Source: Desulfosoma sp. (lineage in GTDB: Bacteria > Desulfobacterota > Syntrophobacteria > Syntrophobacterales > DSM-9756). From it: DNA of 64,000 bases. The stretch spans positions 1 through 64,000 of the forward strand of contig JBBFKW010000007.1 in the NCBI GenBank assembly GCA_037481835.1, given 5' to 3'. Each line of letters starts with the position of its first letter. Position 1 is the first letter of the stretch. Shown one piece after another: positions 1,109 to 63,998 of the stretch. The position numbers and the translations under genes were made by a program. The notes under the pieces were generated by a model. That model was not told the origin of the DNA. It saw only the letters and a program-made list of their open reading frames with translations, and searched no databases.

Positions 1109-1273
1109 GCGTGCGGATCCTCCTGTGCTCCATACCGTGGGGCAGCACATCCGATGGTTCCAGCCGGATCGTATGGATGCCTTTTTCGGCCCTCGGCGTC
1201 AAGCGGAGAACTCCGGGACTCCCGGGATGTTCTCTCTCGCCTTTTCCCGGCGTCTGGCGTTTTTTGAACATTG

Positions 1274-12350: not shown

Positions 12351-12387
12351 GGCTCCCTCCTCCTTTAAGGTGTCTTGTCCTGCCGGC

Positions 12388-13704: not shown

Positions 13705-15026
13705 GGCTCCTTTTTTTCGCGAAAGACGGTCTTGTATGTCAATCCTTCTTGCGGCAGCCGTTCAGGCGAAACATCCACAACACGAACGCCAAGGCCCAGT
13801 TCGCGCCGAAGGCGGCTGCGGATCCGTTCCAGGCGGCTGCTCTTGCTTTCCTCGATTAAGGTTCCCAGGCTGATCCACACTTCCAAGCTGTCTCCCAACC
13901 CGAAGCGCGTGCCCACCATGAGGCGGAAATCCTCGATGGCCGGATCCGTTTCCCGAAGGAGCCGTTCCACACGCTGCGGGCTTACGGGAATGCCCCGGAC
14001 GCTCAGACGATGGTCGGTGCGTCGCCGAACCGGGGAGAGGCGCATGGTGTTCAAGCCGCAGGGACACGGTGCCGCGTCCACGGCGACGACATCTCCCGTG
14101 CGGTAGCGGATGAGCGGGTAGGCCTCGGCGGAGAGTGTGGTGATCACCAGTTCGCCTTCCGATCCCGGCCCCATGGGATGCCCCGTCACGGGGTGCACCA
14201 CTTCCGCAAGGAAATGATCCTCAGCCACGTGGAATCCTCGAAAGGCCGGGCATTCTCCGGCAAGGCCCGGCTCCACCATTTCGGCAACCCCGTACAGGCC
14301 GAAGGCCGGGATGCCCAGTCGGGATCGGATGCGATCTCGAAGAGCTTCGGGGATGGGGTCCGGGCCGAGCACCATGAGCTTGAGGGACAGGTCGTGGAAT
14401 TCCCTTCCCCTTGCGCTTTCCTCGTCCAAGGTGTCCATGAGGTGCAGGGCGAAGGACGGAGTGGCGGCCAGCACCGTGGAACGAAAATCGCGCATGATCT
14501 GCAACTGCAGTTTGGCGGACACGGTAGCCGACGGCGCCAGGGTGGCGCCGAGGGCTTCGGCGGCCTGGTTGAAGGTAAAAGCCCCGGGAAACAGGCTGTA
14601 GTTGAAAGCGACCTGGACAATGTCGCGATCGTGAATCCCCAGGCGCTGGAAGAGGCGAACCACGAGGGATTGCCAAAGGTTTGTGTCCCTTTTGGTGAAA
14701 CCCACGACGATGGGCCGCCCGTCCCGGCTCGTTGCGATCTTCAGCCGGACCACGTTTTTCAGGGGCACCGCAAAAAGGCCGTAGGGGTAGTGGTCCGCCA
14801 AATCCTCGCTGGTGGTGAAAGGAAGGCCTCGAAAATCCTCGTCCGTTTTCACATCTTCCGGCACGACGCCCAAGGCGTCCAGGCGGGAGCGATAGAAATC
14901 CACATGGAAATAGGCGCGGTTCAACGTCATCTGCAGCCGTTCCAGCTGGAGGTGGCGGAGTTTTTCCCGACCGAATCGATCGCCCTCAGCCCCTTCCGTC
15001 ACGACTCGCTCTCCCGAAGTGGTCAT
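13701..15026 (-). CDS. Divergent phenylacetate-CoA ligase-like protein with degenerate catalytic motifs
   Basis: Colinear with PaaK (LPFTT, YPYGLFAVP, RYRTGD), but SSGTTG is replaced by IATSRDG. ATGA overlaps at both ends. Confidence 0.8.
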   Translation of the reverse strand: MTTSGERVVTEGAEGDRFGREKLRHLQLERLQMTLNRAYFHVDFYRSRLDALGVVPEDVKTDEDFRGLPFTTSEDLADHYPYGLFAVPLKNVVRLKIATSRDGRPIVVGFTKRDTNLWQSLVVRLFQRLGIHDRDIVQVAFNYSLFPGAFTFNQAAEALGATLAPSATVSAKLQLQIMRDFRSTVLAATPSFALHLMDTLDEESARGREFHDLSLKLMVLGPDPIPEALRDRIRSRLGIPAFGLYGVAEMVEPGLAGECPAFRGFHVAEDHFLAEVVHPVTGHPMGPGSEGELVITTLSAEAYPLIRYRTGDVVAVDAAPCPCGLNTMRLSPVRRRTDHRLSVRGIPVSPQRVERLLRETDPAIEDFRLMVGTRFGLGDSLEVWISLGTLIEESKSSRLERIRSRLRRELGLGVRVVDVSPERLPQEGLTYKTVFREKKEP

Positions 15027-15748
15027 CGTTCCCATTTGTGCCGGTAGTCCCGTCCCAAATACGCCCGCTGCACGTCCTCGTGTTCGGCCAGGTCGTCGGC
15101 CGATCCGGCCAGCACGATCCGGCCCGTTTCCATCACGTAGCCCCGCCGGCAAATATCCAAGGCCCCCATGGCGTTTTGTTCCACCAGGAGCACGGTGGTG
15201 CCGGAGGCGTGGAGTCTTTGCACTGTGGCATAAATTTCGTCCACAATCAAAGGGGCGAGTCCCAGGGACGGCTCATCCAGCATGAGCAGCTTGGGCCGGG
15301 CCATGAGGGCCCGGGCGATGGAAAGCATCTGCTGTTCCCCGCCGCTCAGCGTGCCGGCTTTCTGGCGGCGCCTCTCGGACAATATGGGAAAAAGCTCGAA
15401 GACTTCCGCCAGGCCGTGGGAAAGGCTCCGTCGACCGTGGATGTAGCCGCCCAGTTCCAGGTTTTCCATCACGGTGAGGTTGGGGAAGAGCTGGCGGGCT
15501 TCGGGCACGTGGACGAGCCCCCGCCGCACGATGCGTTCCGGCGCTTCCCCGTGGATCGGCACGCCGTCGAAGAAGATTTCTCCTTCGCTGGGTTTCATGA
15601 CCCCGCTGATGAGCTTCAAGAGCGTGCTTTTTCCCGCGCCATTGGCTCCCAGCAGGCAGACGATCTCCCCCGCGTCCACATGAAACGTGACCCGCCGAAG
15701 CACCGCGAGCGGCCCATAATGTGCCGAAACGTTCACGACTTTAAGCAT
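15023..15748 (-). CDS. livF: Branched-chain amino acid-type ABC transporter ATP-binding protein (LivF family)
   Basis: GANGAGKS, LSGGEQQM, LDEPSLGLAP, VEQNA. Confidence 0.93.
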   Translation of the reverse strand: MLKVVNVSAHYGPLAVLRRVTFHVDAGEIVCLLGANGAGKSTLLKLISGVMKPSEGEIFFDGVPIHGEAPERIVRRGLVHVPEARQLFPNLTVMENLELGGYIHGRRSLSHGLAEVFELFPILSERRRQKAGTLSGGEQQMLSIARALMARPKLLMLDEPSLGLAPLIVDEIYATVQRLHASGTTVLLVEQNAMGALDICRRGYVMETGRIVLAGSADDLAEHEDVQRAYLGRDYRHKWER

Positions 15749-15784
15749 TGCCGTGCACGTCCCGGATCCTTGAGCGTTCTTGAT

Positions 15785-17638
15785 TCATGTTTCCTCCCGC
15801 CGATCCCGGCCGGGGCGGGCCCGTCGCTTCGTTCCCAGGTAGGCTTCGATAACCCGGGGGTCCTTGCGGATGACAGCGGGCGGGCCTTGGGCGATGACGC
15901 GGCCGTGGTGGAGCACCACCACCCGGTCCGCATAGGCCATGACCACGTTCATGTCGTGTTCCACAAGGACCATGCCCATGTCGGCTCGCCGATGGGCGGC
16001 GATCCAGTCCATGAGGGCCCGGCTCTCGTTGGGCGTGCATCCCCCCACGGGCTCGTCCAGCAAAAGAACGGCCGGCCTTAGGGCCAGAGCCCTCAGGATT
16101 TCCAAGAGCTTTTGTTCGTAAAGGGAAAGGGTCGAGGTGGGCTCGTGGGCTTTGGGTTCCAGAACCGTGCCCTCCAGGAGCGCCGACGCACGGCGCCGGA
16201 GCGTCTCTTCTTCCCGGCGTTCTTGCGGCGTGTGGATCATGGCCCGGCAAAAGCCCGATCGGGCCGAAAGATGATAGCCCACCATCATGTTTTCTAACGG
16301 AGTCAAGTGCCCGAAAATTTGAACGGCTTGAAAAGTGCGCCCCACCCCTGCGGCGGCGGCTTCATGAGCCGACCGACCGGTCAAAGGGACGCCGCGCACC
16401 GTGACCGTTCCCTCCGTCGGGCGGACCAAGCAAGAGATGGCGTTCAGCACCGTAGTCTTGCCGGCTCCGTTGGGTCCGATCACGGCGAGGATTTCACCCG
16501 GCTGGACGTCGAAAGAAACGTGCGCAAGGGCCTGGAGGCCTCCGAAGCGGACGGAAAGGTTTTCGACGCGCAGCACAGGGGCCGAAGAGCTTCCGGGTTG
16601 CCCTTTTTCGTCGCGATGATGCGACCGGGCTTCACGGCCTTGGAGCGTTTTAACGATGGCGGCGCCGTGCCGGGAAGCGGGGGCGGCTTGCCCGAATTTC
16701 TTGAAAAGGCCGATCACGGCGGGGAGCAGCCCTTGAGGGAAGTAGATCAAGGACAGGGTCAAGAGCAGGCCGTAGGCCAGCACCTGGAAGTCTTCCACGG
16801 CATGGAGGAGTTCTCGAAGGCTCGTGAGAAAAACCGTTCCCGCCAAGCCGCCCCATAGACTTCCCGGGCCTCCCACCACAACCATGGTGATCACCTGGAC
16901 GGAATAAAAAATGTCGAACGTGCTCGGGCTGATGAAAGTCATGTAATGCGCGTAGCTGAACCCAGCAAATCCTGCAAGCACGGCGCTCAGGGTGAACACC
17001 TGGACCTTGTAGCGATGGGTCGGTACCCCCAGGGTCCGGGCGGTGAGTTCCTTGTCGTGAAGGGCTTTGAGGGCCCGGCCGATGCGGGAATCTTCCAGGT
17101 TGAGCATCCAGGCGAAGAGAATGAGAAAGCTCGCCCATGCAAAGGCGAAGAAACGGCGGTCGGAATCCACGGCCACGGGGCCCAGGTGCAAGGCCGGAAT
17201 GGCGGCGAGTCCGGACGGGCCGCCTGTGAGGGGTTCCATTTGGTTGAGGCAGATGCTCACAATGATGTTGAAACCCAAGGTGGCCATGACCAGGTAGTGA
17301 CCTTCCAGCCGAAGGGTGGGGACCGCCAGGCACACGCCGAAAAGTGCCGTTACCGCCAAGGCTAGAGCCAGTCCCGCCCAGAGAGGCCAGCCCAGCTGGG
17401 TTGTCACGATGGCGCTGCTGTAGGCGCCGAGTCCGAAAAAGGCCGCATGGCCCAAAGAAATCTGACCGGCGCAGCCGATGAGGAGATTCAGGCCCAGAAC
17501 CACCACGGCGTTCAAGGCCATGATGTTAAAAAGCACGAAAAAATAGTCGTTTCTCACAACAAGTGGGAGCAGGCAGACGACGGCGGCCAGGGCGCCCAGG
17601 GCCTTCCAGGCTTTGGGGATAAAGGGGATTCGGCCCAT
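15785..17638 (-). CDS. Fused ABC permease/ATP-binding protein (LivM-LivG fusion)
   Basis: N-terminal permease (GQISLGHAAFFGLGAY) and C-terminal ATPase (GPNGAGKT, LLDEP, VEHDM). Confidence 0.92.
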   Translation of the reverse strand: MGRIPFIPKAWKALGALAAVVCLLPLVVRNDYFFVLFNIMALNAVVVLGLNLLIGCAGQISLGHAAFFGLGAYSSAIVTTQLGWPLWAGLALALAVTALFGVCLAVPTLRLEGHYLVMATLGFNIIVSICLNQMEPLTGGPSGLAAIPALHLGPVAVDSDRRFFAFAWASFLILFAWMLNLEDSRIGRALKALHDKELTARTLGVPTHRYKVQVFTLSAVLAGFAGFSYAHYMTFISPSTFDIFYSVQVITMVVVGGPGSLWGGLAGTVFLTSLRELLHAVEDFQVLAYGLLLTLSLIYFPQGLLPAVIGLFKKFGQAAPASRHGAAIVKTLQGREARSHHRDEKGQPGSSSAPVLRVENLSVRFGGLQALAHVSFDVQPGEILAVIGPNGAGKTTVLNAISCLVRPTEGTVTVRGVPLTGRSAHEAAAAGVGRTFQAVQIFGHLTPLENMMVGYHLSARSGFCRAMIHTPQERREEETLRRRASALLEGTVLEPKAHEPTSTLSLYEQKLLEILRALALRPAVLLLDEPVGGCTPNESRALMDWIAAHRRADMGMVLVEHDMNVVMAYADRVVVLHHGRVIAQGPPAVIRKDPRVIEAYLGTKRRARPGRDRREET

Positions 17639-17644
17639 GGCGGC

Positions 17645-18535
17645 TCAGAGCCTCCGCACCCGTTCGCTGCCGAACAGGCCGGCGGGCCGAAGAAACAAGA
17701 CGGCCAACAGAATGATGAACGCGAAGGCGTCTTTGTAGGCGGAAGAAATGAAGCCCGCCCCCAAGGATTCCAAAAGCCCCAGCCCGTAACCCCCGAAAAC
17801 GGCTCCCACCGCACTGCCGTAGCCTCCCAGGATGGCGGCCGAAAAACCTTTCAAACCCAGCATGAGACCGCCACTGTAGCTCATGCTGGTGAGCGGCGTG
17901 ATGAGGATGCCGGCCAGGGCGCCGAGGGAACCGGCCATGGCGAAGGCGAGAGCCGTCACCCTTTTGACGGAAATGCCGACCAAGGCCGCCCCGTACGGAT
18001 TGTCGGCCGCTGCCCGCATGGCTTTACCCAGGAGGGTGTGCCGGTAGAAAAAAAAGAGCAGTCCCAGGATGCCGACAGACAACCCGATAATCCACAAAAC
18101 CTGGGGAACGATGGCTGCAGTGCCAAGGATCAAGGGGCTTTCACTGCCGAGGGGAGGGAGCGAATGGACATTTTTCCCCCACAGGAGCATCCCGGTTCCC
18201 CGAACGGCGATGGAGACACCAACGGTGATCATGACGAGCACCAGGACATCCCGATTCCGGGCGGCGCGCAGCGGGCCTCGTTCCAGGGCCAGGCCCGCTA
18301 AGGCCCCAAAGAGGACAGCACCGAAAAAGGCGGGGATCACGGGCACGGAAAGCTTCTGCATGAGGGTGACGGCCATGAGCGCGCCGAGCATGACGAAGTC
18401 GCCTTGGGCGAAATTGACGATCCCCGTAGCGTTTTGGACCATGCAAAAGCCCAGGGCGATCAACGCATAGATGCTGCCGTTGGTGAGACCCGCCACGAAA
18501 AACTGAGGGATCTGCTGCAGGAGCGTTCCGTCCAT
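17645..18535 (-). CDS. livH: Branched-chain amino acid-type ABC permease (LivH family)
   Basis: GSIYALIALG, NFAQG, GKAMRA, AILGG. Confidence 0.93.
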   Translation of the reverse strand: MDGTLLQQIPQFFVAGLTNGSIYALIALGFCMVQNATGIVNFAQGDFVMLGALMAVTLMQKLSVPVIPAFFGAVLFGALAGLALERGPLRAARNRDVLVLVMITVGVSIAVRGTGMLLWGKNVHSLPPLGSESPLILGTAAIVPQVLWIIGLSVGILGLLFFFYRHTLLGKAMRAAADNPYGAALVGISVKRVTALAFAMAGSLGALAGILITPLTSMSYSGGLMLGLKGFSAAILGGYGSAVGAVFGGYGLGLLESLGAGFISSAYKDAFAFIILLAVLFLRPAGLFGSERVRRL

Positions 18536-18689
18536 TATGTGCGGTCCTTGCCCGGGGCCTTTTTTCGGGAGCGGCTCCGGGGCTGCTCCGAGCCGGTTTC
18601 TTGGAGGAACCGGCTTGTATCAGGGATCTTACTCTTGGGCCATGAGCCTCATCCACACAGCGGGCTGCGGGCCCGTTGAAGAGTTCTCG

Positions 18690-19259
18690 TCAATTGGGCT
18701 CGCGCCGGCGGGCCGCACAGGCTCCAGCCTCCAAGGCCTTCATGCTGAGTTCCAATCGCGTCCCGGCCGATTGCCTGAGCGCCTCTTTCACATCGTCCAC
18801 GGTGCAAAAAAGAATCCCCGAAGCTGCCGCATGGCCCAAGAGAACAAGGTTTGCGGCGACCGCATCCCCCAGGTCCTTGGCGATTGAGACGGCGTCGAGG
18901 TCTCCGACCCCTTGGGGATCGGAGCGATTGCAAAAAACCGCACCGCCCGGCTTCAAAAGATAGCCGTGGGCGGCCAAACCTTCTTCATGGAGCGCCAACA
19001 GGACATCCGCTCGACCGGGGCGAATGAGCGGGCTCGTCAAAAAACGGGAACGCAGGGACGCGCCCTGGGAGGCGCATGGGGCATGGATTCGGGGAAAGAC
19101 CTTCAGGTGGCTGATGACATTTCCTCCCCGCTGGGCCATGCCATGGGTTTCGGAAACCAAAACGGACAGGTCCTTCTGGAGGGCCGCCTCCGCAAGGAGT
19201 TTGGTGACGTAAAGAACGCCCTGCCCTCCCAGACCGCTGACGGCGATTTGCTGTTGCAT
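18690..19259 (-). CDS. iorB: Indolepyruvate:ferredoxin oxidoreductase beta subunit
   Basis: GLGGQG, SETHGMAQRGG, NLVLLG. Start at MQQQIAV. Confidence 0.9.
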   Translation of the reverse strand: MQQQIAVSGLGGQGVLYVTKLLAEAALQKDLSVLVSETHGMAQRGGNVISHLKVFPRIHAPCASQGASLRSRFLTSPLIRPGRADVLLALHEEGLAAHGYLLKPGGAVFCNRSDPQGVGDLDAVSIAKDLGDAVAANLVLLGHAAASGILFCTVDDVKEALRQSAGTRLELSMKALEAGACAARRREPN

Positions 19260-19281
19260 GACGGCGATCCTTCTCTTTTCT

Positions 19282-21153
19282 TCATGCGGTGCGGCTCGAA
19301 GGCCGTTCGATGGCTTGATGAGGGCACACGTGAAGGCATACGCCGCACCCGGCGCAGAGGTTTTCGTCGATGGAGACGGCTTCCTTTTCCCCGTGGAAAA
19401 TAAGGGCGGGGCATTCAAAAGACTTAATGCAAAAGCCGCATCCCTCGCATTTTTCCGTGACAACGGGAGCCGGGGCACGGCTTTTCCGACCCTCGTGCCG
19501 AGCGCGCTCCATGAGGCACGGACGGCGTGCGATGACCACGGCCATGCCGCCGTTTTCCGCGTCCCGGCAATGGTCTTTGGCGGCCTTGAGCAATTGGATG
19601 AAACCCGGAACGTCGTATGGATCCCCCACCGACACGTGCCCGACGCCGCAGGCCGCCGCCAAAGCTTCGATGGTCACGGGTGGAACTCTTTGCCCGTCCG
19701 CCGTCATACCGGCGGCCGGCGTCGGCTGATGCCCCGTCATGGCCGTGGTGCCGTTATCCAAAACGATGACGGGAAACCGGCACCCTTGGGCCACGGCGTT
19801 GATGAGGGCCGGGATGCCCGCGTGATAGAAGGTGGAATCGCCGATGGTGGCGACGATGGGCCGGGTGTTGTGGCCCGAATCCCGATAGGCATGAAAGAAT
19901 CCTGCGGCCTGGCTGATGGAAGCTCCCATGCAAAGGACCGTGTCCACCGCCCCCAGGTTCAGTCCCAGAGTGTAACAGCCGATGTCGCTCGCATAAATGC
20001 CCTTGGGGAAAACCTTGCGCATGGCGAAAAAAGCCGCTCGATGGCCGCAGCCGGCGCACAGCGTCGGGCGACGTCCCGCAGCCGGGGAAACATTTTGTTC
20101 TGAAGGTGGAAGCCCGGCAAAACGGCGGACGATCTGTTCCACGATTTCCGGAAGCAGTTCCCCTTCCCGAGGCACAAAGCCGTTCAGCCGCCCCCGGACC
20201 TTGCCGCGGTCCCTGAGTTGTCCTTCGATCACCGGCTGGGTTTCTTCCAAGACCAAAATGTTCTGACAGTTTTCAAGGAGTTCGACGCTGAAGCTTTCGG
20301 ACAGGGGGAAGGGCATGGGCACCTGGTAGATGGGAATCCGGTGCCACAGATCCAAGTCCCGAAGCACTTCCACCGCATGAGCGCACGCGGCCCCCGAAGC
20401 CACAATGGCTTTGTCGAAGGTCGGCTCGACCGAACCGCTTTGCCCGCCAAGAGTTTCGGTCCGGTTCAAGAGTTCCGGCTGCCAGCGGGGGTCTTGCGCG
20501 ATTTGGTCTAGCTTTTCGTTAAGCTTTTTATGGAGAAGATAGCGAAATTTCGGGGTCGCCGCCCATCGGGCCGGATCTTTTTCGAAAACGGGCTGGGACG
20601 GGGCCGTCTGGAAGGCACGGACGGGCATGTCCTGGCGGGCATGGCATACCCGGGTTGTGGGCCGTAGAATGACCGGAATTTCGTAGTCTTCCGATAAGGC
20701 ATAAGCGTGGACGATCCATTCTCGGGCTTGGACAGGATCGGCCGGATCCAATACCGGCAGCTTGGCGAACATGGCAAATTGACGGGTGTCCTGTTCCGTT
20801 TGGGAACTGTGCGGGCCGGGATCGTCGGCCACGATCAGCACAAACCCCCCTTTGACCCCCGTATACGCGGCGCTCATCACCGGGTCGGCCGCCACGTTGA
20901 GCCCCACCTGTTTCATGGCCGCAGCGGAACGTCTTCCAGCGTAGCTGTTGGCCAGAGCCGTTTCCACGGCCACCTTCTCGTTGATGGACCACTCCAGATG
21001 GCACGGCACGGCATGACGACGCCTGAGCTGCATCAAGGCGGCCATGATCTCCGAAGCAGGGGTTCCGGGATAAGAGGCCGCCAGGGTGCAGCCGGCTTCC
21101 AGAAGCCCATGGGCGATGGCTTCATTGCCCAGAAGGATTTTTCTCTCCGTCAC
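19282..21153 (-). CDS. iorA: Indolepyruvate:ferredoxin oxidoreductase alpha subunit
   Basis: LGNEAIA, YPGTPASE, MKQVGLNVAAD, CAGCGH, DIGCY, GDSTF and two C-terminal CxxCxxCxxxCP motifs. Confidence 0.95.
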   Translation of the reverse strand: MTERKILLGNEAIAHGLLEAGCTLAASYPGTPASEIMAALMQLRRRHAVPCHLEWSINEKVAVETALANSYAGRRSAAAMKQVGLNVAADPVMSAAYTGVKGGFVLIVADDPGPHSSQTEQDTRQFAMFAKLPVLDPADPVQAREWIVHAYALSEDYEIPVILRPTTRVCHARQDMPVRAFQTAPSQPVFEKDPARWAATPKFRYLLHKKLNEKLDQIAQDPRWQPELLNRTETLGGQSGSVEPTFDKAIVASGAACAHAVEVLRDLDLWHRIPIYQVPMPFPLSESFSVELLENCQNILVLEETQPVIEGQLRDRGKVRGRLNGFVPREGELLPEIVEQIVRRFAGLPPSEQNVSPAAGRRPTLCAGCGHRAAFFAMRKVFPKGIYASDIGCYTLGLNLGAVDTVLCMGASISQAAGFFHAYRDSGHNTRPIVATIGDSTFYHAGIPALINAVAQGCRFPVIVLDNGTTAMTGHQPTPAAGMTADGQRVPPVTIEALAAACGVGHVSVGDPYDVPGFIQLLKAAKDHCRDAENGGMAVVIARRPCLMERARHEGRKSRAPAPVVTEKCEGCGFCIKSFECPALIFHGEKEAVSIDENLCAGCGVCLHVCPHQAIERPSSRTA

Positions 21154-39941: not shown

Positions 39942-42900
39942 ATGAGCGCCTATCAACCTTTGGACCCGAACATGACATGTCGTCCCTCGTGGTGGGTGGA
40001 ACGTCTTCGGTGCGTTTCGGGCCGCCCAGTTCCAGTTCGGGACACGCGCATCCCGAAAGACGGGAAACCTCTGGCGGCGGTCGTCGGTGCCCTTCGGGCA
40101 GGATTGGACGAGCTGCGGTTGCTTGTAGGGGCGGATTCGGAGGCTTTCCGGGGTTTTGTCGAAGGGCTGCGCGCCGAGGCCTTGGGACCGTGGGGAGAGG
40201 ATCCTGAGCGCCGTTTGGTCGGGCTGGTTAAAGAGGCTTTGGGGCGAAGGGATTGGCGCGAAAAAGACATCATCGACATGATTCTCGCCTATCTCACGGC
40301 GCTGGGTCCTTCGCTGCCCGAAGATGTGAGAATGTCTTGGGAAAGGTTGGAAAGGGCGGCGAAGGCGCGCAACGGTGCCGAGCGCACGCTCATGGAAGGC
40401 CTCATCAGCGAAGCGCGGGGGCGTCTTGGCGGCTTGGCGTGGGCCCGGGAGCATGCCTTGGAAAAAGGACCCCGTGAGGGCGCCTTCGGCCTTTCTTCCC
40501 TTCGATGGCTTCGAGAAACACTGGCCGCCATGACGGGATGCGCCGGCGATCTCGCCGACCGTTCCGATGAGGAGTTGGCGCGCCTGAGTCCGGCCGAGAT
40601 ATGGCAGGATTTGGACGAGGCTTTGACGAAAGCCTGGGGGAAAACGGGCCGGAGCTTTCCCGTCAAAGATTTGGAAAAAGCTTCCTTGTATCTCATGGAG
40701 GACATGGGAGCGAGGAGTCCCAACCATCGGTTCTTCATCCGTTTTCTCATTGAAGACGAAGCGGCCTATCGGCGCCTCTTGAGAACCTGTTACGCCGACG
40801 AAACGGTGCAGAGGGCCTGTTTGGATCAGGAATGCGAGCGGTTCAACCGTCTTCCGGAACATGCGGCCCACCGGGTGTTCTACGACGCCGACGAAAAAAC
40901 GTGGTGGCTTAAAGCGTTTTTCCTCAGGCCGGACGTGGTGCACTGTTTCGTGGAACGGGAAAGAGCCAAGGATATTTACCATGTCCTCGCGGGACTGGAA
41001 CCTAAAGCCTATCTGCCTCGGGTGCTCCATGAAGTTCAAGGGCTTTTCGGGTATGTGACACCGGAGGCGTGCCGCCACATCGTCCAGCGCCTCGGCTTGG
41101 ATCCCGAAGACGTTCTTCGGGTGATCGCCTCCTACAAGCAGTACAGCGCCGATCCCTCGGGGGACATCATCATCTACGTGTGCAAGGGAACAGCGTGTTT
41201 TCTCCGCGGCCAGCCTGAACTGTCGCGTCGGCTCACTGAGGAAATCGGGGCGGAAGTGGACGCCGTGGGCCGCTACGGGGTGCAGTATGTGGAGATGGAT
41301 TGTTTCGGGGTGTGCCATCTGGCTCCCGTGGTGCGCGCCGGAAATCGTTTCTATGGAAAGCAAAAGGCGGAAGATATTCCCCGGCTGGTGAATAGCCTCA
41401 TCCAGGGCCCCGACTACGAAAACCGGCAACGGTTCGTGTCGCGCCTTTTGGAAAAGATGCGTGCCGACAGCGTCAGCGAGCCCGTGGATGCTTTGAGGGT
41501 CGAATCCGTGGGAAAATTTTCCAAAGTCGACCGCTTGGGAGTGCGGGAAGAGGGCGCGTGGGACGATTCTTTGGAGGGATGTTCGGTAATTTTGGACGAC
41601 AAGGGCGCTGTTTCCATACTCCTACCGGACGGTTTCGCGCACGGCGTAGGCCGACTGGTCCCTCGGGTTCTTCCTTTCATCATGCGGGATGCGGACGGTT
41701 TCAATCGTTTCGGCGCCGTCGTTCTCGATGATCATCGTCGGGCGGCACGGGTGTTGGGCGTGCCCGACCTGACGGACGAGGAGGTGATCCGGGGCGCGCT
41801 TCGTCCGACGGCTCGAGTCGTGGACGGCCGCGTGGTGCTCTCTTCCCATGAAAAGACCGTGGTGCTGGGCCCTTATACGGATCGGGTGCTCATCGCCGAC
41901 GCCCCTGATGCCTACGTCGCCGTTGTTTTGGCGGAAGGAGGTGCTTCAGGTCCTTTCGTCGAAACCGAAGCAAGAGGCCCTGACAGGGTTGCGTCCGAAG
42001 AGGCCTCTTTCCGGGCGGGCCAAGACCGGGTTGTTTTGGATTTCGCCGCTGCAGGGCGTCCGTCCTGCATGGCGTCCTATCGAGCGGCGGGGGGCTATGA
42101 GTCGGTCTACCGGGTGCTGGGATTTCGCGGGGAGCCCCCGTGGGATCCGGAACGGATCATCGCGGAAGTGCGGGACGCGAAGCTTCGGGGACGGGGCGGG
42201 GCGGGCTTTCCCACGGGACGCAAGTGGGAAGCCATGTTACGGGCCGTGTGTCGGATCGATCCCGAAGACGGCAACCAAGACCCGGTGAAACTCATCGTGG
42301 CCAACGGCGACGAAGGAGACCCGGGGGCCTTCATGGACCGCACGCTCATCGAGGAAAAACCCCATCAGGTTCTGGAAGGAATGATCTTGGCCGCCGTTGC
42401 CGTGGGCGCCCGCTACGGGGTGATCTATGTGCGAAAAGAGTATGAAGACGCCGTGAGAAGCCTGGAGGACGCGCTTTTCGAGGCACGGCGCTGCGGGTTT
42501 CTCGGGCGGGATATTTTTGGAGTGTCCGGATTGCACTTTGACGTGGAAATCCGATTGGGGGCCGGGGCGTTCGTGGCCGGAGAGAAGCGGGCCATCATGC
42601 GGGCCATTGAAGGAAAGCCTGCAGAACCCACCATCAAGGCCCCGTCCAACACCGTGCGCGGGCTTTGGGGAAAGCCCACACTGCTCAACAACGTGGAAAC
42701 CTTTGCCAATGTCCCCGTCATTCTTCACCGAGGGAGCGCCTGGTATGCCCGGCTGGGCACGTCCCGAAGCGGCGGGACCAAAATCTTTTCCGTCGCCGGC
42801 ATTGTCAAGAAAACCGGGCTCGTGGAAGTCCGCTTCGGCAAGACCCTTGGGGATGTCATCGAAATCTGCGGCGGAATCCAGGACGGAAAGAAACTCTCCG

Positions 42901-43607
42901 GAGTCCAGATCGGGGGGCCGTCCGGAGCCATCCTGTCCTTGACCGGCGCTCGGGCTTACCTGCTCCAGACGCCTTTGGATTTCGACACGTTCAACGATGC
43001 CGGCGCCATGTTGGGTTCCGGCGGGTTGGTCTTTATCGGAGAAGACGACGACGTCGTCCGGCTGGCTCGCCATTTTACGGATTGGCTTTCGGAAGAATCC
43101 TGCGGTCAATGCCCGTCGTGTTTTCGAGGCACCCGGGCCTTGGGGCGTGTCCTGGACAAGATCCTGGCCGGTCAGGGCACAGCGGGCGATATTCACGAAT
43201 TGTGGGCTTTGAGCGATGTGGTGCGGGCCGGAAGTCAGTGCGGCCTAGGAACAACCGCCGCCAACCCCGTGACCAGCGCCTTGCGGTTTTTCCCCGCGTC
43301 CTTTTTCCACTACCTGCTCGGCAACCCGGAGATGCAACCTCGCGATGTCTTTGAGGCCCTGGAGGCCCTGAGGCTCCTGACACGACAGGAAATCGTTCGT
43401 GTTGCGGGAGTGCGCCGACACGTGGAAGGGGCGGCTTTCACGCTGAAACGGCATCTGGTGCGGTTCCTGGTGGAAGAAATCGAAAAAATCGATCGCTACC
43501 GGCCGTTGCCTTCCCGAATGACCGATCGGTTGCTCCGGTTGCTGGGCCTGCCGCGCTACGAAGTGGGCCAAAGAGAAGTCGTCATGGAATGGCGCGATGT
43601 GGCATAA
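39942..43607 (+). CDS. Fused NuoE-NuoF (HydC/HydB-like) NAD(P)H-flavin/Fe-S module with N-terminal extension
   Basis: AAGGAG RBS. NuoE [2Fe-2S] CKGTAC...CFGVC. NuoF LRGRGGAGFPTG.KW, NGDEGDPGAFMDR, NNVETF, GGPSG, and [4Fe-4S] CGQCPSC...CGLG. Confidence 0.9.
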   Translation: MSAYQPLDPNMTCRPSWWVERLRCVSGRPVPVRDTRIPKDGKPLAAVVGALRAGLDELRLLVGADSEAFRGFVEGLRAEALGPWGEDPERRLVGLVKEALGRRDWREKDIIDMILAYLTALGPSLPEDVRMSWERLERAAKARNGAERTLMEGLISEARGRLGGLAWAREHALEKGPREGAFGLSSLRWLRETLAAMTGCAGDLADRSDEELARLSPAEIWQDLDEALTKAWGKTGRSFPVKDLEKASLYLMEDMGARSPNHRFFIRFLIEDEAAYRRLLRTCYADETVQRACLDQECERFNRLPEHAAHRVFYDADEKTWWLKAFFLRPDVVHCFVERERAKDIYHVLAGLEPKAYLPRVLHEVQGLFGYVTPEACRHIVQRLGLDPEDVLRVIASYKQYSADPSGDIIIYVCKGTACFLRGQPELSRRLTEEIGAEVDAVGRYGVQYVEMDCFGVCHLAPVVRAGNRFYGKQKAEDIPRLVNSLIQGPDYENRQRFVSRLLEKMRADSVSEPVDALRVESVGKFSKVDRLGVREEGAWDDSLEGCSVILDDKGAVSILLPDGFAHGVGRLVPRVLPFIMRDADGFNRFGAVVLDDHRRAARVLGVPDLTDEEVIRGALRPTARVVDGRVVLSSHEKTVVLGPYTDRVLIADAPDAYVAVVLAEGGASGPFVETEARGPDRVASEEASFRAGQDRVVLDFAAAGRPSCMASYRAAGGYESVYRVLGFRGEPPWDPERIIAEVRDAKLRGRGGAGFPTGRKWEAMLRAVCRIDPEDGNQDPVKLIVANGDEGDPGAFMDRTLIEEKPHQVLEGMILAAVAVGARYGVIYVRKEYEDAVRSLEDALFEARRCGFLGRDIFGVSGLHFDVEIRLGAGAFVAGEKRAIMRAIEGKPAEPTIKAPSNTVRGLWGKPTLLNNVETFANVPVILHRGSAWYARLGTSRSGGTKIFSVAGIVKKTGLVEVRFGKTLGDVIEICGGIQDGKKLSGVQIGGPSGAILSLTGARAYLLQTPLDFDTFNDAGAMLGSGGLVFIGEDDDVVRLARHFTDWLSEESCGQCPSCFRGTRALGRVLDKILAGQGTAGDIHELWALSDVVRAGSQCGLGTTAANPVTSALRFFPASFFHYLLGNPEMQPRDVFEALEALRLLTRQEIVRVAGVRRHVEGAAFTLKRHLVRFLVEEIEKIDRYRPLPSRMTDRLLRLLGLPRYEVGQREVVMEWRDVA

Positions 43608-43665
43608 AGGCAAAAGTGAAGAGGGAAATCCAGCTGTCAGGAAAACGTTGCCCTGGAGGGGGACC

Positions 43666-44235
43666 ATGATGACCAAAGAGAGAACGTACTTCCAAGCCTT
43701 TCGAGAAATGGTGCAGGTGGTGAGCGGCACCTTGGATGTGCAGGTGGTGCTGCAGGCCATGGTGAGCACGATTCCCCAGGTCTTGGGGGCCAAGGCCTGT
43801 GCCGTCCGCCTCCTGGACCCCAAAGGCCGCACTCTGGAATTGGCCGCCAGTCACGGACTCAGTGACGCCTACATCCACAAGGGGCCTGTCGATGCGGACC
43901 AAAGCCTTGCCGAAACGCTTCAAGGAAAGACCGTCGTCATCCACGATGCATCGACGGACCCTCGAGCCCAGTACGGCGAAGCGGCCCGCAAGGAGGGGAT
44001 CGTGGGCATCTGTTCCGTTCCCCTTAAGGTCAAAGGGAGGGTGATCGGGGTCCTGAGAATTTACACCGAGGAGCCCAAGGAGTATGTCCCCGACGAGCTG
44101 GCCTTTGTGGAGGCTTTGGGAGAATTGGGAGGCATTGCCATTGAAAACGCCCGTATGTACGAGCGGCTGAAAAAGGATTACGAAGAGGTCATGAGCGATG
44201 TCTTTCGCTTTGTGGGGTATCGGCGCAGCCTGTGA
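43666..44235 (+). CDS. Stand-alone GAF domain protein
   Basis: LELAASHGLS..Y, SVPLKVKGRVIGVL, AIENARMY, with GGAGG RBS. Confidence 0.87.
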   Translation: MMTKERTYFQAFREMVQVVSGTLDVQVVLQAMVSTIPQVLGAKACAVRLLDPKGRTLELAASHGLSDAYIHKGPVDADQSLAETLQGKTVVIHDASTDPRAQYGEAARKEGIVGICSVPLKVKGRVIGVLRIYTEEPKEYVPDELAFVEALGELGGIAIENARMYERLKKDYEEVMSDVFRFVGYRRSL

Positions 44236-44342: not shown

Positions 44343-44420
44343 TTTTTTTAGATGGCGGCGAACGCCCGCTCAAGGGGAGAGCGTGCGGGCTTGAATCCGG
44401 TCAGAGTGAGGGCGGCGGAA

Positions 44421-45476
44421 ATGGCGGTCGGGGCGGTTGCAGCGGTTGCGGAGAAGGACTACGGCGCTCTGGATTTTCGAAAAGCGAAGAAACAGTCCCT
44501 GGACGGGCCGGTCAAAATCGAAGATCTGGGCTACGTGCCTTTTCCGGTGAAATTTTTGGTTCCGGATTTCATGATCCCGTGCGATCTCTTTGTTCCCGTG
44601 CTGGCCAAAGGGGAAGAGCTTCCCACCTTCGTCAAGGTCTTGGACCGAGGGCAGTTTTTTTCCGAGGAGTGGAGGTTCGCGCTCAAGGAACAGCGTGTGG
44701 ACATGCTCTATGCGGAAGAAGACGCCGCGATGGGCCTCGACGACTATTTCGCCGAAGTCCTCCATGCCTTCACCGAAGACGAGGTGACCCCCACGTGGCA
44801 AAAGGCCCTGGTTTTGTACAATTACGGGGAATTTCTCGCCCGGCGCCTCTTTCAGGATGTGCATGACGGGGATCTCTTCGAAAAAACGATCCATTGGGCA
44901 GACTCCGTCGTTGGGCTCGTCCAGGGGCAGCAGGCGAAGGTTTCCGTGATCTATCGGCTGTTTTCCCGAGATTACGAAACTTTCAACCACAGTGTCCAGG
45001 TGGCGATGCTGGCCGCGGCTTTTTGCGGCTTTTGCGGCTGGCGCTCCGAGGACGCGACTCGTGTCGGTGTCGCCGGGCTTTACCACGATATCGGAAAAAT
45101 CTGGGTAGACCAGAGGATCCTTCTCAAGCCCTCATCCCTCACCCGTGAAGAATTCGGCCAGATCCGTCGGCATCCGCAGGCCGCTTACGACCATTTGGCG
45201 GCCTTAGACTGGATGAACGCCGATCAGTTATCCGCCGTTCGCGAACATCACGAATCCATGGACGGCACGGGCTATCCTCAGGGGCTCAAAGGAGCGGACA
45301 TCCATCCATACGCTCGGGTTTTGCACATCTGTGATTGTTTTGACGCCTTGACCACCCACCGGCCCTACAAAAAAGCCGTCACCCCTTACAAGGCCTTGAA
45401 GCTCATGCAAAGTGAGATGAGGCTTTCTTTCGATCGACACCTCCTGTATAAATTCATTCAATTTCTCGGTTCTTGA
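44421..45476 (+). CDS. HD-GYP domain protein (putative c-di-GMP phosphodiesterase)
   Basis: [31 protein letters not shown]. Start uncertain (44352 or 44421). Confidence 0.88.
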
Positions 45477-51500: not shown

Positions 51501-52001
51501 CTAGGTGGGGTTGATTTCGGCCGCCGCCTCAAGGCGGCCGAAATGGGCGAACCGGCGGCGAAGGTCGCCTGTGTGAGGAACAAAACGCAGCCGACGCGTC
51601 GTCGGGCCGAGGATTTCCAAGAAAATATCCAGCCTTGCCGAAGGGAGGAAGGGCCCGAGCCGTTCGGGCCATTCCACCACGGCGACGCCGTCCCCGAAAA
51701 GAGCTTCCCTCCAGGGGAGGGTTTCCAACTCGTCGGGATCGCCCAGGCGGTAGCCGTCCATGTGGTAGAGGCGAAGCCGCCCTTCGTATTCGTTGATGAT
51801 GGTGAAGGTCGGGCTCGTGACGGCCGTTCCCGCGGGGACTCCCAAGCCTCGAGCGATCCCTTTGGTAAGGAGGGTCTTGCCCGCTCCCAGTTCTCCCCAC
51901 AAGGCCACCACATCGCCCGCGACCAAGCGTTTTCCCACGGCTTCCCCCAAGGCCAAGGACGCCTCGGGTGACGCGGATTCCACGCACAGGCTTTCCGTCA
52001 T
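51501..52001 (-). CDS. tsaE: tRNA threonylcarbamoyladenosine biosynthesis ATPase
   Basis: GELGAGKT, VTSPTF, YHMDGYRL, VEW. Confidence 0.93.
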   Translation of the reverse strand: MTESLCVESASPEASLALGEAVGKRLVAGDVVALWGELGAGKTLLTKGIARGLGVPAGTAVTSPTFTIINEYEGRLRLYHMDGYRLGDPDELETLPWREALFGDGVAVVEWPERLGPFLPSARLDIFLEILGPTTRRLRFVPHTGDLRRRFAHFGRLEAAAEINPT

Positions 52002-53551
52002 GCTTTTTCCAACGCTCCGATCACGAAGGGGATGTGTTCCAAGAGATCCCCCGCCAAAAGACCGCGCGTCGTCAGTCCTCGGCACACCTTTTCGGCCGCG
52101 GCGCCGTGGACGTACACCCCGAGGCACGCCGCATGGAACGGATCCAGTCCCTGGGCGATGAATCCCGCTATCATACCGGTCAAGACATCCCCCATGCCGC
52201 CCGAGGCCATGGCTGGTGTCCCGGAGCCGTTGACGGCCAGCCGCCCGTCCGGGGCGGCGATGACGGTGCGATGGCCTTTGAGAACGACGATGACACCGTG
52301 CGTGCGGCTGAATTCCTGAGCGGCCCGGAGCCGATCGGCCTGGACGTCCGGGACGGAGCAGCGGAGCAATCGCGCCATTTCCCCCGGATGGGGCGTCAGG
52401 ATCACGGGAACGGCCGCCTTGTGCAGGGTTTGGGGAGCATCAGCCAGGAGGGTCAAGGCGTCCGCATCCAGCACCAAGGGGCAGGGCGAGCGGGCGATGA
52501 GATCCTCGACCAGGCGGCGGGTTTCTTCATGGAGTGAAATACCCGGCCCGAGGGCGAAAGCCTCTTTGTCTTCCAGGAAGGCAAGGATTTCCGGTCCCGC
52601 CGCCTCCGCGGCGCTCTGCTCCGACGTTTCCGCAATGGGCAGGGTCATGGCTTCGGTGAGCTTGACTTCCAGGATGGGGTTCAGGGAACGGGGAATGAAA
52701 AGGGTCACAAGCCCCGCCCCCACCCGCGCCGCGCCCAAGCAGGCCAGCGTCGCGGCACCGGTTTTTCCCGGGGAGCCGGAAAGGACGCACACGTGCCCCG
52801 CCCGTCCTTTGTGGGTTTCGGCCGGCCGCGGCCGCAGCCACTGGCGGCAGGTGTCCTCGTCCAGCCACCATCGCGGGATGCCCGCGGAGGCCACCACGGC
52901 GGGAGGAATGCCGATATCCACCACATGGAGCGTCCCGACCAGGGCATCTCCCTGGGCGATTCTCTGGCCGACTTTGGGCAGTCCGAAAGTGGCCGTCGCC
53001 GTCGCGCGAACGGCCGCCCCCAGAATCTTTCCCGTGGAGGCATCCAGACCCGACGGCACATCTACGGCGAGCACCGGTTTTTCCAAGGCGTTGAGCGCTT
53101 CGATGACGTCGCGGTACAGCCCTTGGACGGGACTGGACAGACCCGTGCCGAGAATGGCATCGACGATGACGTCCGCTTCGCGGATGAGGGCGAATTGAGA
53201 TGAAAAATCGGAACTTTCATCCCAGTGGCAGGGCCTGAGTCCGATGTTTTCCAAGATCCGGTAATTGATCAAAGCGTCGCCCCGGAGCCGTTCCGCCGGT
53301 CGCAGGCAGACGACGCGCACCGAGGCGCCGCGAGTGTGCAAGAGGCGCGCGATGACGAAACCGTCTCCCGCGTTGTTGCCTGTGCCGGCAACAACCACGA
53401 CGCGGCGTTGGGCCAGGTCGGGAAGAATCCGTTCAAAAAAGGCCAAGGCCCCCCGAGCCGCGTTTTCCATGAGCACGACCCCGGGAATGCCGATTTCTTC
53501 GATGGTCCGTCGGTCCAGTTCGGCCATTTCTTGAGCGGTGACGAGAATCAT
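51998..53551 (-). CDS. nnr: Bifunctional NAD(P)H-hydrate epimerase/dehydratase
   Basis: LMENAA, GNNAGDG, DVPSG, HKG, LDADAL, TPHPGE, GMGDVL. Confidence 0.94.
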   Translation of the reverse strand: MILVTAQEMAELDRRTIEEIGIPGVVLMENAARGALAFFERILPDLAQRRVVVVAGTGNNAGDGFVIARLLHTRGASVRVVCLRPAERLRGDALINYRILENIGLRPCHWDESSDFSSQFALIREADVIVDAILGTGLSSPVQGLYRDVIEALNALEKPVLAVDVPSGLDASTGKILGAAVRATATATFGLPKVGQRIAQGDALVGTLHVVDIGIPPAVVASAGIPRWWLDEDTCRQWLRPRPAETHKGRAGHVCVLSGSPGKTGAATLACLGAARVGAGLVTLFIPRSLNPILEVKLTEAMTLPIAETSEQSAAEAAGPEILAFLEDKEAFALGPGISLHEETRRLVEDLIARSPCPLVLDADALTLLADAPQTLHKAAVPVILTPHPGEMARLLRCSVPDVQADRLRAAQEFSRTHGVIVVLKGHRTVIAAPDGRLAVNGSGTPAMASGGMGDVLTGMIAGFIAQGLDPFHAACLGVYVHGAAAEKVCRGLTTRGLLAGDLLEHIPFVIGALEKA

Positions 53552-62543: not shown

Positions 62544-63998
62544 TTAACCTTCCAGAGTGAGCAAGACCGCCTCGGCCACGTGCCTCATGGACTTGCGGGT
62601 GTCCATGCTCTTTTTCTGCAACCAGCGGTAGGCTTCCTCGCCGGTGAGGTTGAGCCTGGAGATGAGGACATCTTTGGCCTTTTCGATGATCTTCCTCTTT
62701 TCCAGTTCTTCTTGAATGATCGTGGTCTTCACCATGAGTTCGGTGTTTTCGATGGCCACAGCGGCTTGATTGGCCACGGCGGTCAGCACGTTCATCTCCA
62801 GCTCGGTGAACCGATGGGGCCGGGACGTGTAGCAGTTGATGACGCCGATGACGCGGTCCTTGACGCGCATGGGGATACTGAGCATGGAGACGAGGCCGAG
62901 GCGCTTGGCCAGTTCTTTTTCCTTGTAATAGGGGTCCTCCAGGACGTTGAGGGAAATGTGCGGTTTGTTTTCAACGACGACCTTGCCGACGACGCCTTCC
63001 CCGACCTTGAGCACCCGATCTTTGACGTAATCGGGATTGATGGCTTGCGTCGCCCGCAGGCGCAGCACGCGTTCTTGCTCATCGAGGAGCCATAAGGAAC
63101 ACACGCTGGAATTCATCACTTCCGCGGTGACCATCACGATGAGCCGCAAAATATCTTCCAGGTATTGGTCCGAAGTGATGGCCTTGCTGATCACGGTGAG
63201 AGCTTCAACACTCTTGTCCGCGGGGCTGGGTTCCATCGATCTTTGCGCCGCCTGAGCGAATTCGTCCAGATACCCTTCAGCGAACCGTAGCGGCGGGCGG
63301 CGCTTGTGGAGCGTTCGGGACCGGAGCTCTTCAATGCGTTTTCGAACCGCTTGGGGCACCGCCGCCTGGCGGCCGCTCAAAAAGCTATCCAGGTGCTTGT
63401 AGGTGAAGCCCATTTCCCCTTCGTCGGTCTGACCGGCCCACAACCCCGCCGAAGGGGGTTTCGTGATGATGGAATGGGGAAGTTTCAGCGCTCGGGCCAG
63501 CTTCTGAACGTCTTTTTTCAGCAGGTGAATAATGGGTTGGATGTCCGCCGCGCCGTCTCCATGCTTCGTGAAGTACCCGATTTCCCATTCGCTGCGATTG
63601 CTGGTGCCCATGACCAAGAAGCCGAGTTCGGCGGCCTTGTGGTAGAGGACGGCCATGCGCACTCTGGCCTTGAGGTTTCCCAGGAGACGGGGATCGTTGC
63701 AGGAGAGGGTTTCCGCGAGCCGATCCACGACAGGCCCCAGATCGATTTCTTCGCAGGAAATGCCCACGTGCCGACAGACCAATCGCGCATCGGCCAGATC
63801 GTCCGGAGCATTGTGACATGGCAGGATGAGCCCGAGGACGTGCTCCCCCAGGGCCTTTTTCGCCAAAGCGGCACAGACGGCGGAGTCGATGCCTCCGCTG
63901 ATGCCGACGACCACGCCCCGGGCTCCGGCGCCCCGGACGCTCTCCGCAATCCATTGCACCAGACGCGCGATGTCTTCGGAGTGCTTTCGGCCGGCCAT
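62544..63998 (-). CDS. nadE: NH3-dependent NAD+ synthetase fused to GAF and ANTAR domains
   Basis: SGGIDS, NLKARVRM, GTSNRSE..GYFTKHGDG, PSAGLW.GQTDE; then GAF (SIPMRVKDRVIGVI..AIEN); then ANTAR (RKIIEKAK..EEAY..LQKKSMD). The start is at the window edge and may lie further upstream. Confidence 0.88.
   Translation of the reverse strand: MAGRKHSEDIARLVQWIAESVRGAGARGVVVGISGGIDSAVCAALAKKALGEHVLGLILPCHNAPDDLADARLVCRHVGISCEEIDLGPVVDRLAETLSCNDPRLLGNLKARVRMAVLYHKAAELGFLVMGTSNRSEWEIGYFTKHGDGAADIQPIIHLLKKDVQKLARALKLPHSIITKPPSAGLWAGQTDEGEMGFTYKHLDSFLSGRQAAVPQAVRKRIEELRSRTLHKRRPPLRFAEGYLDEFAQAAQRSMEPSPADKSVEALTVISKAITSDQYLEDILRLIVMVTAEVMNSSVCSLWLLDEQERVLRLRATQAINPDYVKDRVLKVGEGVVGKVVVENKPHISLNVLEDPYYKEKELAKRLGLVSMLSIPMRVKDRVIGVINCYTSRPHRFTELEMNVLTAVANQAAVAIENTELMVKTTIIQEELEKRKIIEKAKDVLISRLNLTGEEAYRWLQKKSMDTRKSMRHVAEAVLLTLEG

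Follow-up and report, generated by a model that had tools for sequence, protein, structure and literature searches.

The flavoprotein module of complex I type serves hydrogenases, formate dehydrogenases, transhydrogenases and complex I throughout anaerobic energy metabolism. It comprises proteins such as NuoF and HydB that use nicotinamide adenine dinucleotide (NAD) or its phosphate (NADP). The NADH site has been described in Aquifex NuoF, where the adenine is touched by Phe71, Phe79, Tyr205, Pro206 and Val207, the pyrophosphate is held by Lys202 and, via water, by Glu185 and Gly394, and the ribose by Lys76 (PMC9299107). Among the HydB-type proteins, those of A. woodii and T. maritima both combine the second Glu of the motif CGEETAL with a Phe stacked on the adenine, the former being reported as NAD+-dependent and the latter belonging to an NAD-specific type of HydABC. 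The same Glu and Phe are present in C. saccharolyticus NfnB (9bov_B), whose structure is in complex with NAD. The NADP+-dependent HydB of T. kivui has the motif CGESTAL, in which Ser takes the place of the Glu, and it carries Arg340 at the stacking position; this Arg340 is a contact of NADP+ (PMC10021017, Fig. 4 legend). Mutagenesis to find the determinants of NADH and NADPH use has been called for (PMC9431212). Here we describe a member of this family from Desulfosoma sp., encoded in a window of 64,000 nucleotides (positions 1 to 64,000 of the forward strand of contig JBBFKW010000007.1, assembly GCA_037481835.1). The gene, P0001 (39942..43607, + strand; open reading frame and translation), codes for a fused NuoE-like and NuoF-like flavoprotein of 1221 residues, in which the Glu is replaced by a Lys followed by an Arg (the K-R pair).

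The K-R pair is part of the motif GAGAFVAGEKRAI (42558..42596, + strand; P0001 residues 873-885), which falls within the Complex1_51K match of P0001 and, as read from the DNA and its translation and placed on an AlphaFold2 (AF2) model, runs from the end of a strand through a loop into the first turn of the following helix. The DNA at 42558-42596 (+) reads GGG GCC GGG GCG TTC GTG GCC GGA GAG AAG CGG GCC ATC, in which the codons AAG and CGG (42585..42590, + strand) specify K882 (42585-42587) and R883 (42588-42590), and the codon at 42576..42578 (+) specifies A879 in place of the Cys of the canonical CGEE. A preliminary description of this DNA had noted a change from CGEETAL to AGEKRAI, with which DNA and translation agree. 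CGEETAL is present in 45 of the 51 next-nearest relatives (at most 49% identity; used as outgroup) and the other six have CGE[EGS][TS][AS]L. By BLASTP, GAGAFVAGEKRAI aligns gap-free to GAGRYICGEETAL of E. coli K-12 NuoF (taken from NC_000913.3), in an ungapped block that pairs K882 with E183 and R883 with T184. The alignment to C. necator HoxF (from pHG1), likewise ungapped, pairs the same residues with E341 and S342, and in T. kivui HydB the counterpart of K882, again in an ungapped block, is S320. As Aquifex and E. coli numbering differ by two (Aquifex Lys202 and Tyr205 are E. coli K200 and F203; PMC9299107), E. coli E183 is Aquifex E185. P0001 has Lys882 where the family has the second Glu of G-E-E-(T/S), and the possibility raised beforehand, that this Lys might not be equivalent to E183/E185, is removed by the ungapped blocks.

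The conservation of the pair was followed in an orthologue set consisting of P0001 and 68 cluster representatives from Desulfosoma, Desulfacinum, Desulforhabdus and Syntrophobacteraceae, with NuoF parts that are 66-97% identical, and at 24 loci, sampled with one genome per species from named genomes and metagenome-assembled genomes and including three cultured strains. AGEKRAI was found in 69/69 sequences of the orthologue set and GAGAFVAGEKRAI is encoded at 24/24 loci, so that conservation of Lys-Arg in orthologues, which the preliminary description had named as a check on its proposal, is complete in both sets. The neighbouring A879 follows the same pattern, with Ala in 69/69 sequences of the clade and Cys in 51/51 of the outgroup. 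Over the window and the 24 loci, Lys882 is encoded by AAG 13 times and by AAA 12 times, and Arg883 by CGG (12), CGA (3), CGC (4), AGA (4) and AGG (2), that is by five codons of two families. As the residues are invariant while their synonymous codons drift, the pair has been kept by selection.

An exhaustive phmmer search against 1.84 billion representatives yielded 16,431 members of the family (E <=0.001), of which the best 150 were examined together with P0001. Among the 151 sequences the K882 position is occupied by the K-R pair in 7, by Glu in 120 and by Ser, Ala, Thr, Gly, Gln or Asp in 24, Lys being absent from this position in all of the remaining 144. After exclusion of six fragments shorter than 330 residues, 145 domain sequences were placed in a tree (FastTree, LG+gamma), where the seven K-R sequences group together in a single clade (support 1.0). 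The pair arose once, and the change is ancient and fixed in its clade; this confinement to a single clade holds for the 151 sequences and the 51 outgroup proteins, and not for the ~16,000 other matches.

Apart from the Glu, other residues around the adenosine differ from those of the family, an aspect that the preliminary description had overlooked and that concerns the Ser902 stack position, the variable residue 899 and Asp836. In alignments to solved HydB and NuoF chains, the loop (K/R)-P-P-(F/Y)-P-x that faces the adenine is replaced by K899-A-P-S902-N903-T904 (42636..42653, + strand), and at the 24/24 loci it reads x-A-(P/V/I)-S-N. P0001 has Ser902 at the place of the stacking aromatic (Aquifex Tyr205), and residue 899, the equivalent of Aquifex Lys202, is K, N, G or Q in the clade, whereas nearly all other representatives have K or R there. 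Further differences from the outgroup that are fixed in the clade are C879A, L885I, S888A, G894A and P900A. Eight of the 43 clade-specific substitutions fall within residues 879-903, a stretch of 25 residues among 455 aligned positions (hypergeometric P = 0.001). A second group consists of the clade-specific acidic residues E835 and D836 (42444..42449, + strand; from the alignment), located where the helix after the neighbouring strand begins (AF2 helix 146-161). Residue 835 is Glu in 68/69 sequences of the clade and Pro in 51/51 of the outgroup, and residue 836 is Asp in 69/69 and Leu, Ile or Arg in 51/51. The FMN (flavin mononucleotide) and nicotinamide half of the pocket is fully kept, with the Gly-rich loop, GDEGDPGAFMDR, NNVET and GGPSG. 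Judged by these alignments, the whole adenosine half of the dinucleotide pocket of P0001 is rebuilt.

The AF2 model, which spans P0001 residues 690-1135 with a mean pLDDT (predicted local distance difference test) of 88.8, has the fold of the FMN/NADH domain, as Foldseek gave template-modelling (TM) scores of 0.88-0.90 to the HydB, NfnB and WorB chains and 0.84 to Aquifex NuoF. In domain numbering the strand comprises residues 177-184 and the helix residues 193-200, K882 and R883 being the first two residues of this helix.

Across the 151 sequences the residue at the position of the second Glu varies together with the one stacked on the adenine, since Phe or Tyr occupies the stack position in 112/120 of the sequences with Glu, and Arg or His in 23/24 of those with a small residue or Asp. 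Three types of pocket can be distinguished, namely Glu with Phe/Tyr, Ser/Ala/Gly/Asp with Arg/His, and Lys-Arg with Ser, and this pairing may serve as a usable specificity code for HydB/NuoF enzymes. All three types are present in the genome from which the window comes. Besides P0001 itself (AGEKRAI and KAPSN), it encodes L003 (contig C14), a NuoE-NuoF fusion of canonical type that has CGEETAL and KPPFP, and a HydB-like paralogue with CGESTAL and KHIHT (L004, G000:C1:142647-146162), which is of the Ser/His class of A. mobile WorB.

On these grounds we consider the P0001 site to be NADP(H)-preferring or NADP(H)-competent, a reading from sequence to which we give a probability of roughly 0.55. 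With Lys882 in place of Glu, the carboxylate is gone and with it the repulsion of the 2'-phosphate, and Lys, Arg, Ser and Asn, as found at the pocket (K882, R883, S902 and N903), are typical 2'-phosphate ligands. Both the orientation of K882 and R883 towards the 2'-position and the identity of the nucleotide used are inferred. The strongest point in favour is an analogy with engineered HoxF. According to two reviews, the HoxF variant E341A/S342R of the C. necator soluble hydrogenase accepts NADP+ with a Michaelis constant (Km) of 0.6 mM, near the wild-type Km for NAD+, and with a turnover about fourfold lower (PMC10127272, PMC11563201). The two positions are exactly those of K882 and R883, and Arg883 stands where the Arg was introduced into HoxF. 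P0001 also mirrors T. kivui HydB, in that the base replaces the Glu and the Ser is at the stack site. The E183 variants of E. coli NuoF are likewise said to use NADP(H), the Glu reportedly being in contact with the adenosine ribose. A literature search, which left the supplements of the HydABC and Bfu papers outside its range, returned no description of a natural Lys/Arg variant of the pocket or of this operon.

Several observations weigh against NADP(H) use. In Aquifex, Glu185 is bridged by water to the pyrophosphate and not to the ribose (PMC9299107), and the claim of the preliminary description that the second Glu contacts the adenosine ribose differs from this account. The Lys202 equivalent is variable in the clade, and K882 and R883 may merely supply the charge lost there. 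WorB of A. mobile (CGESSAL, with Ser and His at the two positions) has no Glu and was yet solved with NADH, so that loss of the Glu alone is no predictor of NADP; it is necessary-looking for NADP use, but not sufficient. The conserved D836 could form a salt bridge with K882 or R883 and neutralise the new charges, although the partnership of the acidic pair with K-R is not obligatory, as Glu-Asp at 835/836 was found in three non-K-R sequences and P0130, one of the K-R representatives, has Arg835. Confidence in the AF2 model is lowest at the motif, where pLDDT drops below 50 for residues 878-880 and is about 70 for residues 870-899. The genome gave 11 matches to PF14691 (NfnB/GltD-type), and with these there is no evident shortage of NADPH enzymes; PntB was not found in the genome and 11 POR_N matches were present, and as a test of the need for NADPH the genome context is not discriminating. 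The proposal of the preliminary description that Lys-Arg leads to NADP(H) is supported in part, by the residue equivalence, the invariance, the HoxF precedent and the Ser of T. kivui HydB, and it is weakened by WorB, which binds NADH in spite of lacking the Glu, and by the changes at residues 836, 899 and 902, each of which leaves room for another reading. A further candidate for evidence was set aside. The loop sequences GDEGDPG and ADEGDPG have been proposed as a rule for NADP and NAD use (PMC9431212), and P0001 has NGDEGDPG, but GDEGDPG is shared by the NADH-using T. maritima HydB.

The alternative that survives best, although we regard it as unlikely, is that P0001 has retained the use of NAD(H) and that K882 and R883 are compensatory, either for the lost pyrophosphate Lys or as partners of E835 and D836, with specificity the same or loosened. 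The variability of residue 899 over the 24 loci fits with this, as does the water bridge from Aquifex Glu185 to the pyrophosphate, since a base at that position could bind the pyrophosphate directly (PMC9299107). WorB provides a case of NADH binding without the Glu, and D836 is present in 7/7 K-R representatives. On the other hand, two of the three non-K-R representatives with Glu-Asp at 835/836 have the normal Glu, from which it follows that K-R is not required by the acidic residues, and the Arg at residue 835 of P0130 indicates that the acidic pair is not strict. Moreover, two bases beside the ribose are not expected to shut out a 2'-phosphate, and in HoxF removal of the Glu with an Arg next to it reportedly sufficed for NADP+.

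A more doubtful explanation is that the pocket binds another ADP-containing ligand, such as the 3'-phospho-ADP end of coenzyme A (CoA) or a regulatory nucleotide, or binds nothing, and that the FMN acts as a one-/two-electron relay between the module resembling pyruvate:ferredoxin oxidoreductase (PFOR), encoded upstream, and a partner such as ferredoxin. The adenine subsite has neither the stacking aromatic, its place being taken by Ser902, nor the PP(F/Y)P loop, and because 112/120 of the sequences that keep the Glu also keep Phe or Tyr, the loss of both is a large departure. The pocket is also the least confident part of the model, and CoA is a substrate of the family to which the partner enzyme belongs. 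Against such a ligand stand the fully kept nicotinamide/FMN side and the invariance of K-R, as a ligand contact would predict, and we know of no member of the NuoF family with a non-nicotinamide ligand at this site. It is very improbable that K882 and R883 are interface residues that touch the clade-specific N-terminal or linker regions of P0001 or the protein P0002 and meet no nucleotide: although the K-R clade always adjoins or is fused to giant partners and P0001 has ~550 residues without family assignment, all solved relatives have this position at the entrance to the nucleotide pocket, where an interface would block the substrate, and the fused forms P0128, P0130 and P0167 keep K-R despite very different linkers.

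P0001 stands at the end of a conserved trio of genes. The first gene, P0004 (28464..34952, + strand), codes for a protein of 2162 residues that resembles 2-oxoacid:ferredoxin oxidoreductases in rearranged form, as recognised from matches to Pfam (Fer4 at 190-257, POR_N at 1418-1631 and PFOR_II at 1676-1784) and to entries of the Protein Data Bank (PFOR 6cin_A and the PFOR alpha and beta subunits 9bt4_B/C). It comprises a Fer4 dicluster, a segment of the thiamine pyrophosphate (TPP) type and the PFOR domains I and II, with the order of these parts rearranged, and it is presumed to be the electron source or sink for P0001. Between the two lies P0002 (34907..39832, + strand; 1641 residues), for which Pfam gave only the 32-residue Fe-S motif PF04060 at residues 725-756. 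The order P0004-like, P0002-like and P0001-like on one strand was found at 15/15 loci with a full upstream flank of 10 kb. In addition, P0128 (2980 residues) fuses P0002-like and P0001-like parts, and P0167 (7473 residues) carries the order of the operon in one chain, with a PFOR-like part at 1094-3335, a P0002-like part at 4336-4650 and a NuoEF-like part at 5397-6812, in which AGEKRAI is kept; about 1000 residues before and about 660 after the recognised parts of P0167 have no assignment. By these fusions and this synteny the K-R flavoprotein is tied to the PFOR-like enzyme. The predicted complex occurs in sulfate reducers of the Syntrophobacterales type, and with P0002 as query the system was detected in 6/401 sampled genomes of the phylum. 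In a separate observation, the P0002 homologue of a sister species of the same genus (G238:C1:147882-152678) matches in two pieces with an in-frame TGA in the first, for which a frameshift, an error in sequencing and recoding of the stop are all possible explanations.

In such a three-protein 2-oxoacid oxidoreductase complex of P0004, P0002 and P0001, the last would be the module for FMN and pyridine nucleotide, the predicted reaction would be 2-oxoacid + CoA + NADP+ <-> acyl-CoA + CO2 + NADPH, and P0002 might add a further coupling site. The PFOR couple lies at about -500 mV and physiological NADP+ at about -380 mV (PMC9304861, Table 1); as the former can reduce NADP+, a 2-oxoacid:NADP+ oxidoreductase is thermodynamically reasonable, and the reverse direction needs extra coupling. 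We therefore put forward, tentatively and with less assurance than the nucleotide preference as such, that in the K-R clade the NADH dehydrogenase module of complex I type has evolved naturally into an NADP(H)-specific form, by a route unlike that of T. kivui HydB, and that with its giant partners this form may constitute a new bacterial class of 2-oxoacid:NADP+ oxidoreductase or an NADPH-linked, energy-coupled 2-oxoacid synthase.

In P0001, Pfam placed PF01257 (the NuoE-type [2Fe-2S] family) at residues 357-485 with 87 bits, PF01512 (Complex1_51K, Nuo51 FMN) at 743-925 with 136.8 bits against a cut-off of 31.2, and PF10589 (NuoF [4Fe-4S]) at 1041-1121 with 79.6 bits against 23.5, while PF10531 (SLBB) at 949-990 scored 25.7 bits, under its cut-off of 27. 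The first of these corresponds to a NuoE/HydC-like [2Fe-2S] domain of thioredoxin fold (residues 357-485; 41010..41396, + strand) with the Cys pattern CKGTAC...CFGVC. The N-terminal ~350 residues and the linker at ~490-690 gave no match to a Pfam family. The Gly-rich FMN/nucleotide loop GRGGAGFPTG (residues 750-759; 42189..42218, + strand) is intact in the translation, and its G750, R751 and G753 are invariant columns of alignment A1. The Cys ligands of the N3-type [4Fe-4S] cluster, C1054, C1057, C1060 and C1100 (43101..43241, + strand; PF10589), are columns C365, C368, C371 and C411 of A1 and are invariant in 28/28 aligned sequences. Judged from the sequence, this cluster, the FMN site and the NuoE-type [2Fe-2S] cluster are all intact. 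Pfam gave no Fer4 match in P0001, and there is no Cys beyond C1100, so that the C-terminal 2x[4Fe-4S] domain of BfuB is absent. AFM and GGPSG have been named as motifs of BfuB (bioRxiv 10.64898/2026.06.25.734504), and the translation contains both, in GAFMDR and QIGGPSGA. As a side observation, residues 787, 879, 997, 1037 and 1075 are Cys in 51, 51, 49, 49 and 44 of the 51 outgroup proteins, and have become A, A, I, D and L, respectively, in 68-69 of the 69 sequences of the clade.

Directly 3' of the operon are a stand-alone GAF gene (43597-44235, +) and a gene with an HD_5 domain of HD-GYP type (44352-45476, +), the GAF gene being the next gene in 16/22 related loci with at least 1 kb of downstream sequence. 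These two neighbours hint at control by a small molecule or a cyclic nucleotide. Further along the window, 8 kb downstream of the operon, a bifunctional NAD(P)H-hydrate epimerase/dehydratase (YjeF_N and Carb_kinase) is encoded at 51998-53551 (-), and at 62544-63998 (-) an NAD synthase is fused to GAF and ANTAR RNA-binding domains, an unusual combination of an enzyme and an antitermination regulator. Upstream, a cluster at 11163-21153 (-) contains an IorA-like protein with TPP, POR_N and Fer4 domains (19282-21153), two phenylacetate-CoA-ligase-like AMP-binding proteins and parts of a branched-chain amino-acid ABC (ATP-binding cassette) transporter, and looks like a separate, conventional unit of 2-oxoacid and amino-acid catabolism.

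If the NADP(H) reading is true, it would supply the cofactor of a giant and so far unstudied 2-oxoacid oxidoreductase of sulfate reducers, and the K-R clade, as a natural and anciently fixed solution at the same two positions that were engineered in HoxF, would offer a template for hydrogenases and formate dehydrogenases that recycle NADPH.

With respect to known systems, the best solved relatives of P0001 are T. maritima HydB 7p5h_B (E 1e-114), A. mobile WorB 9mqx_B and T. kivui HydB 8a6t_B. The likeness to the HydB/BfuB proteins (7p5h_B of T. maritima, 7q4v_B of A. woodii and the NfnB 9bov_B of C. saccharolyticus) is high, with E values of 1e-108 to 1e-114, 44-46% identity and TM scores of 0.88-0.90, and with the FMN loop, GAFMDR, GGPSG and the N3 ligands in common. 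Unlike P0001, these three have CGEETAL and PPFP, use NAD(H), carry the C-terminal 2x[4Fe-4S] and have a NuoG-like partner, BfuA, a gene for which was not seen by Pfam among the neighbours P0002 to P0007. T. kivui HydB (8a6t_B) resembles P0001 in that the second Glu is replaced by a non-acidic residue and the stack position is changed, but the two have taken different courses: T. kivui HydB combines a Ser in place of the Glu with Arg340 at the stack position, and P0001 combines Lys-Arg with Ser902, which aligns to Arg340. The engineered HoxF and NuoF proteins are laboratory point mutants of canonical pockets with the stacking aromatic, whereas in P0001 the whole adenosine subsite differs. With A. 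mobile WorB (9mqx_B; CGESSAL and KYIHAT) and L004, P0001 shares the loss of both the second Glu and the stacking Phe; WorB, unlike P0001, has no bases at the Glu and Glu+1 positions.

At the level of the complex, two systems come closest. The pyruvate:NADP+ oxidoreductase (PNO) of Euglena and Cryptosporidium consists of a canonical PFOR fused to an FMN/FAD (flavin adenine dinucleotide) domain of the cytochrome-P450-reductase type. The proposed overall reaction, from a PFOR-type module to an NADP+-reducing flavoprotein, would be the same, but the reductase of P0001 is of the NuoE/NuoF type and the PFOR-like part, P0004, is rearranged. The functional analogy to PNO drawn in the preliminary description is reasonable as a mechanism, but it does not extend to family membership, as Pfam gave no match to flavodoxin or FNR-type domains in P0001, P0002 or P0004. 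The other is the predicted Por-Bfu of Chloroflexi and syntrophic Proteobacteria, in which BfuABC and four Por proteins make up seven subunits of ordinary size that are predicted to use NADH and ferredoxin (Schut et al. 2022, PMC9304861). Both Por-Bfu and the present system link a PFOR-type enzyme genetically to a flavoprotein of the NuoF family; the present system differs in dispensing with BfuA, in being built of three giant proteins, and in the K-R pocket of P0001.

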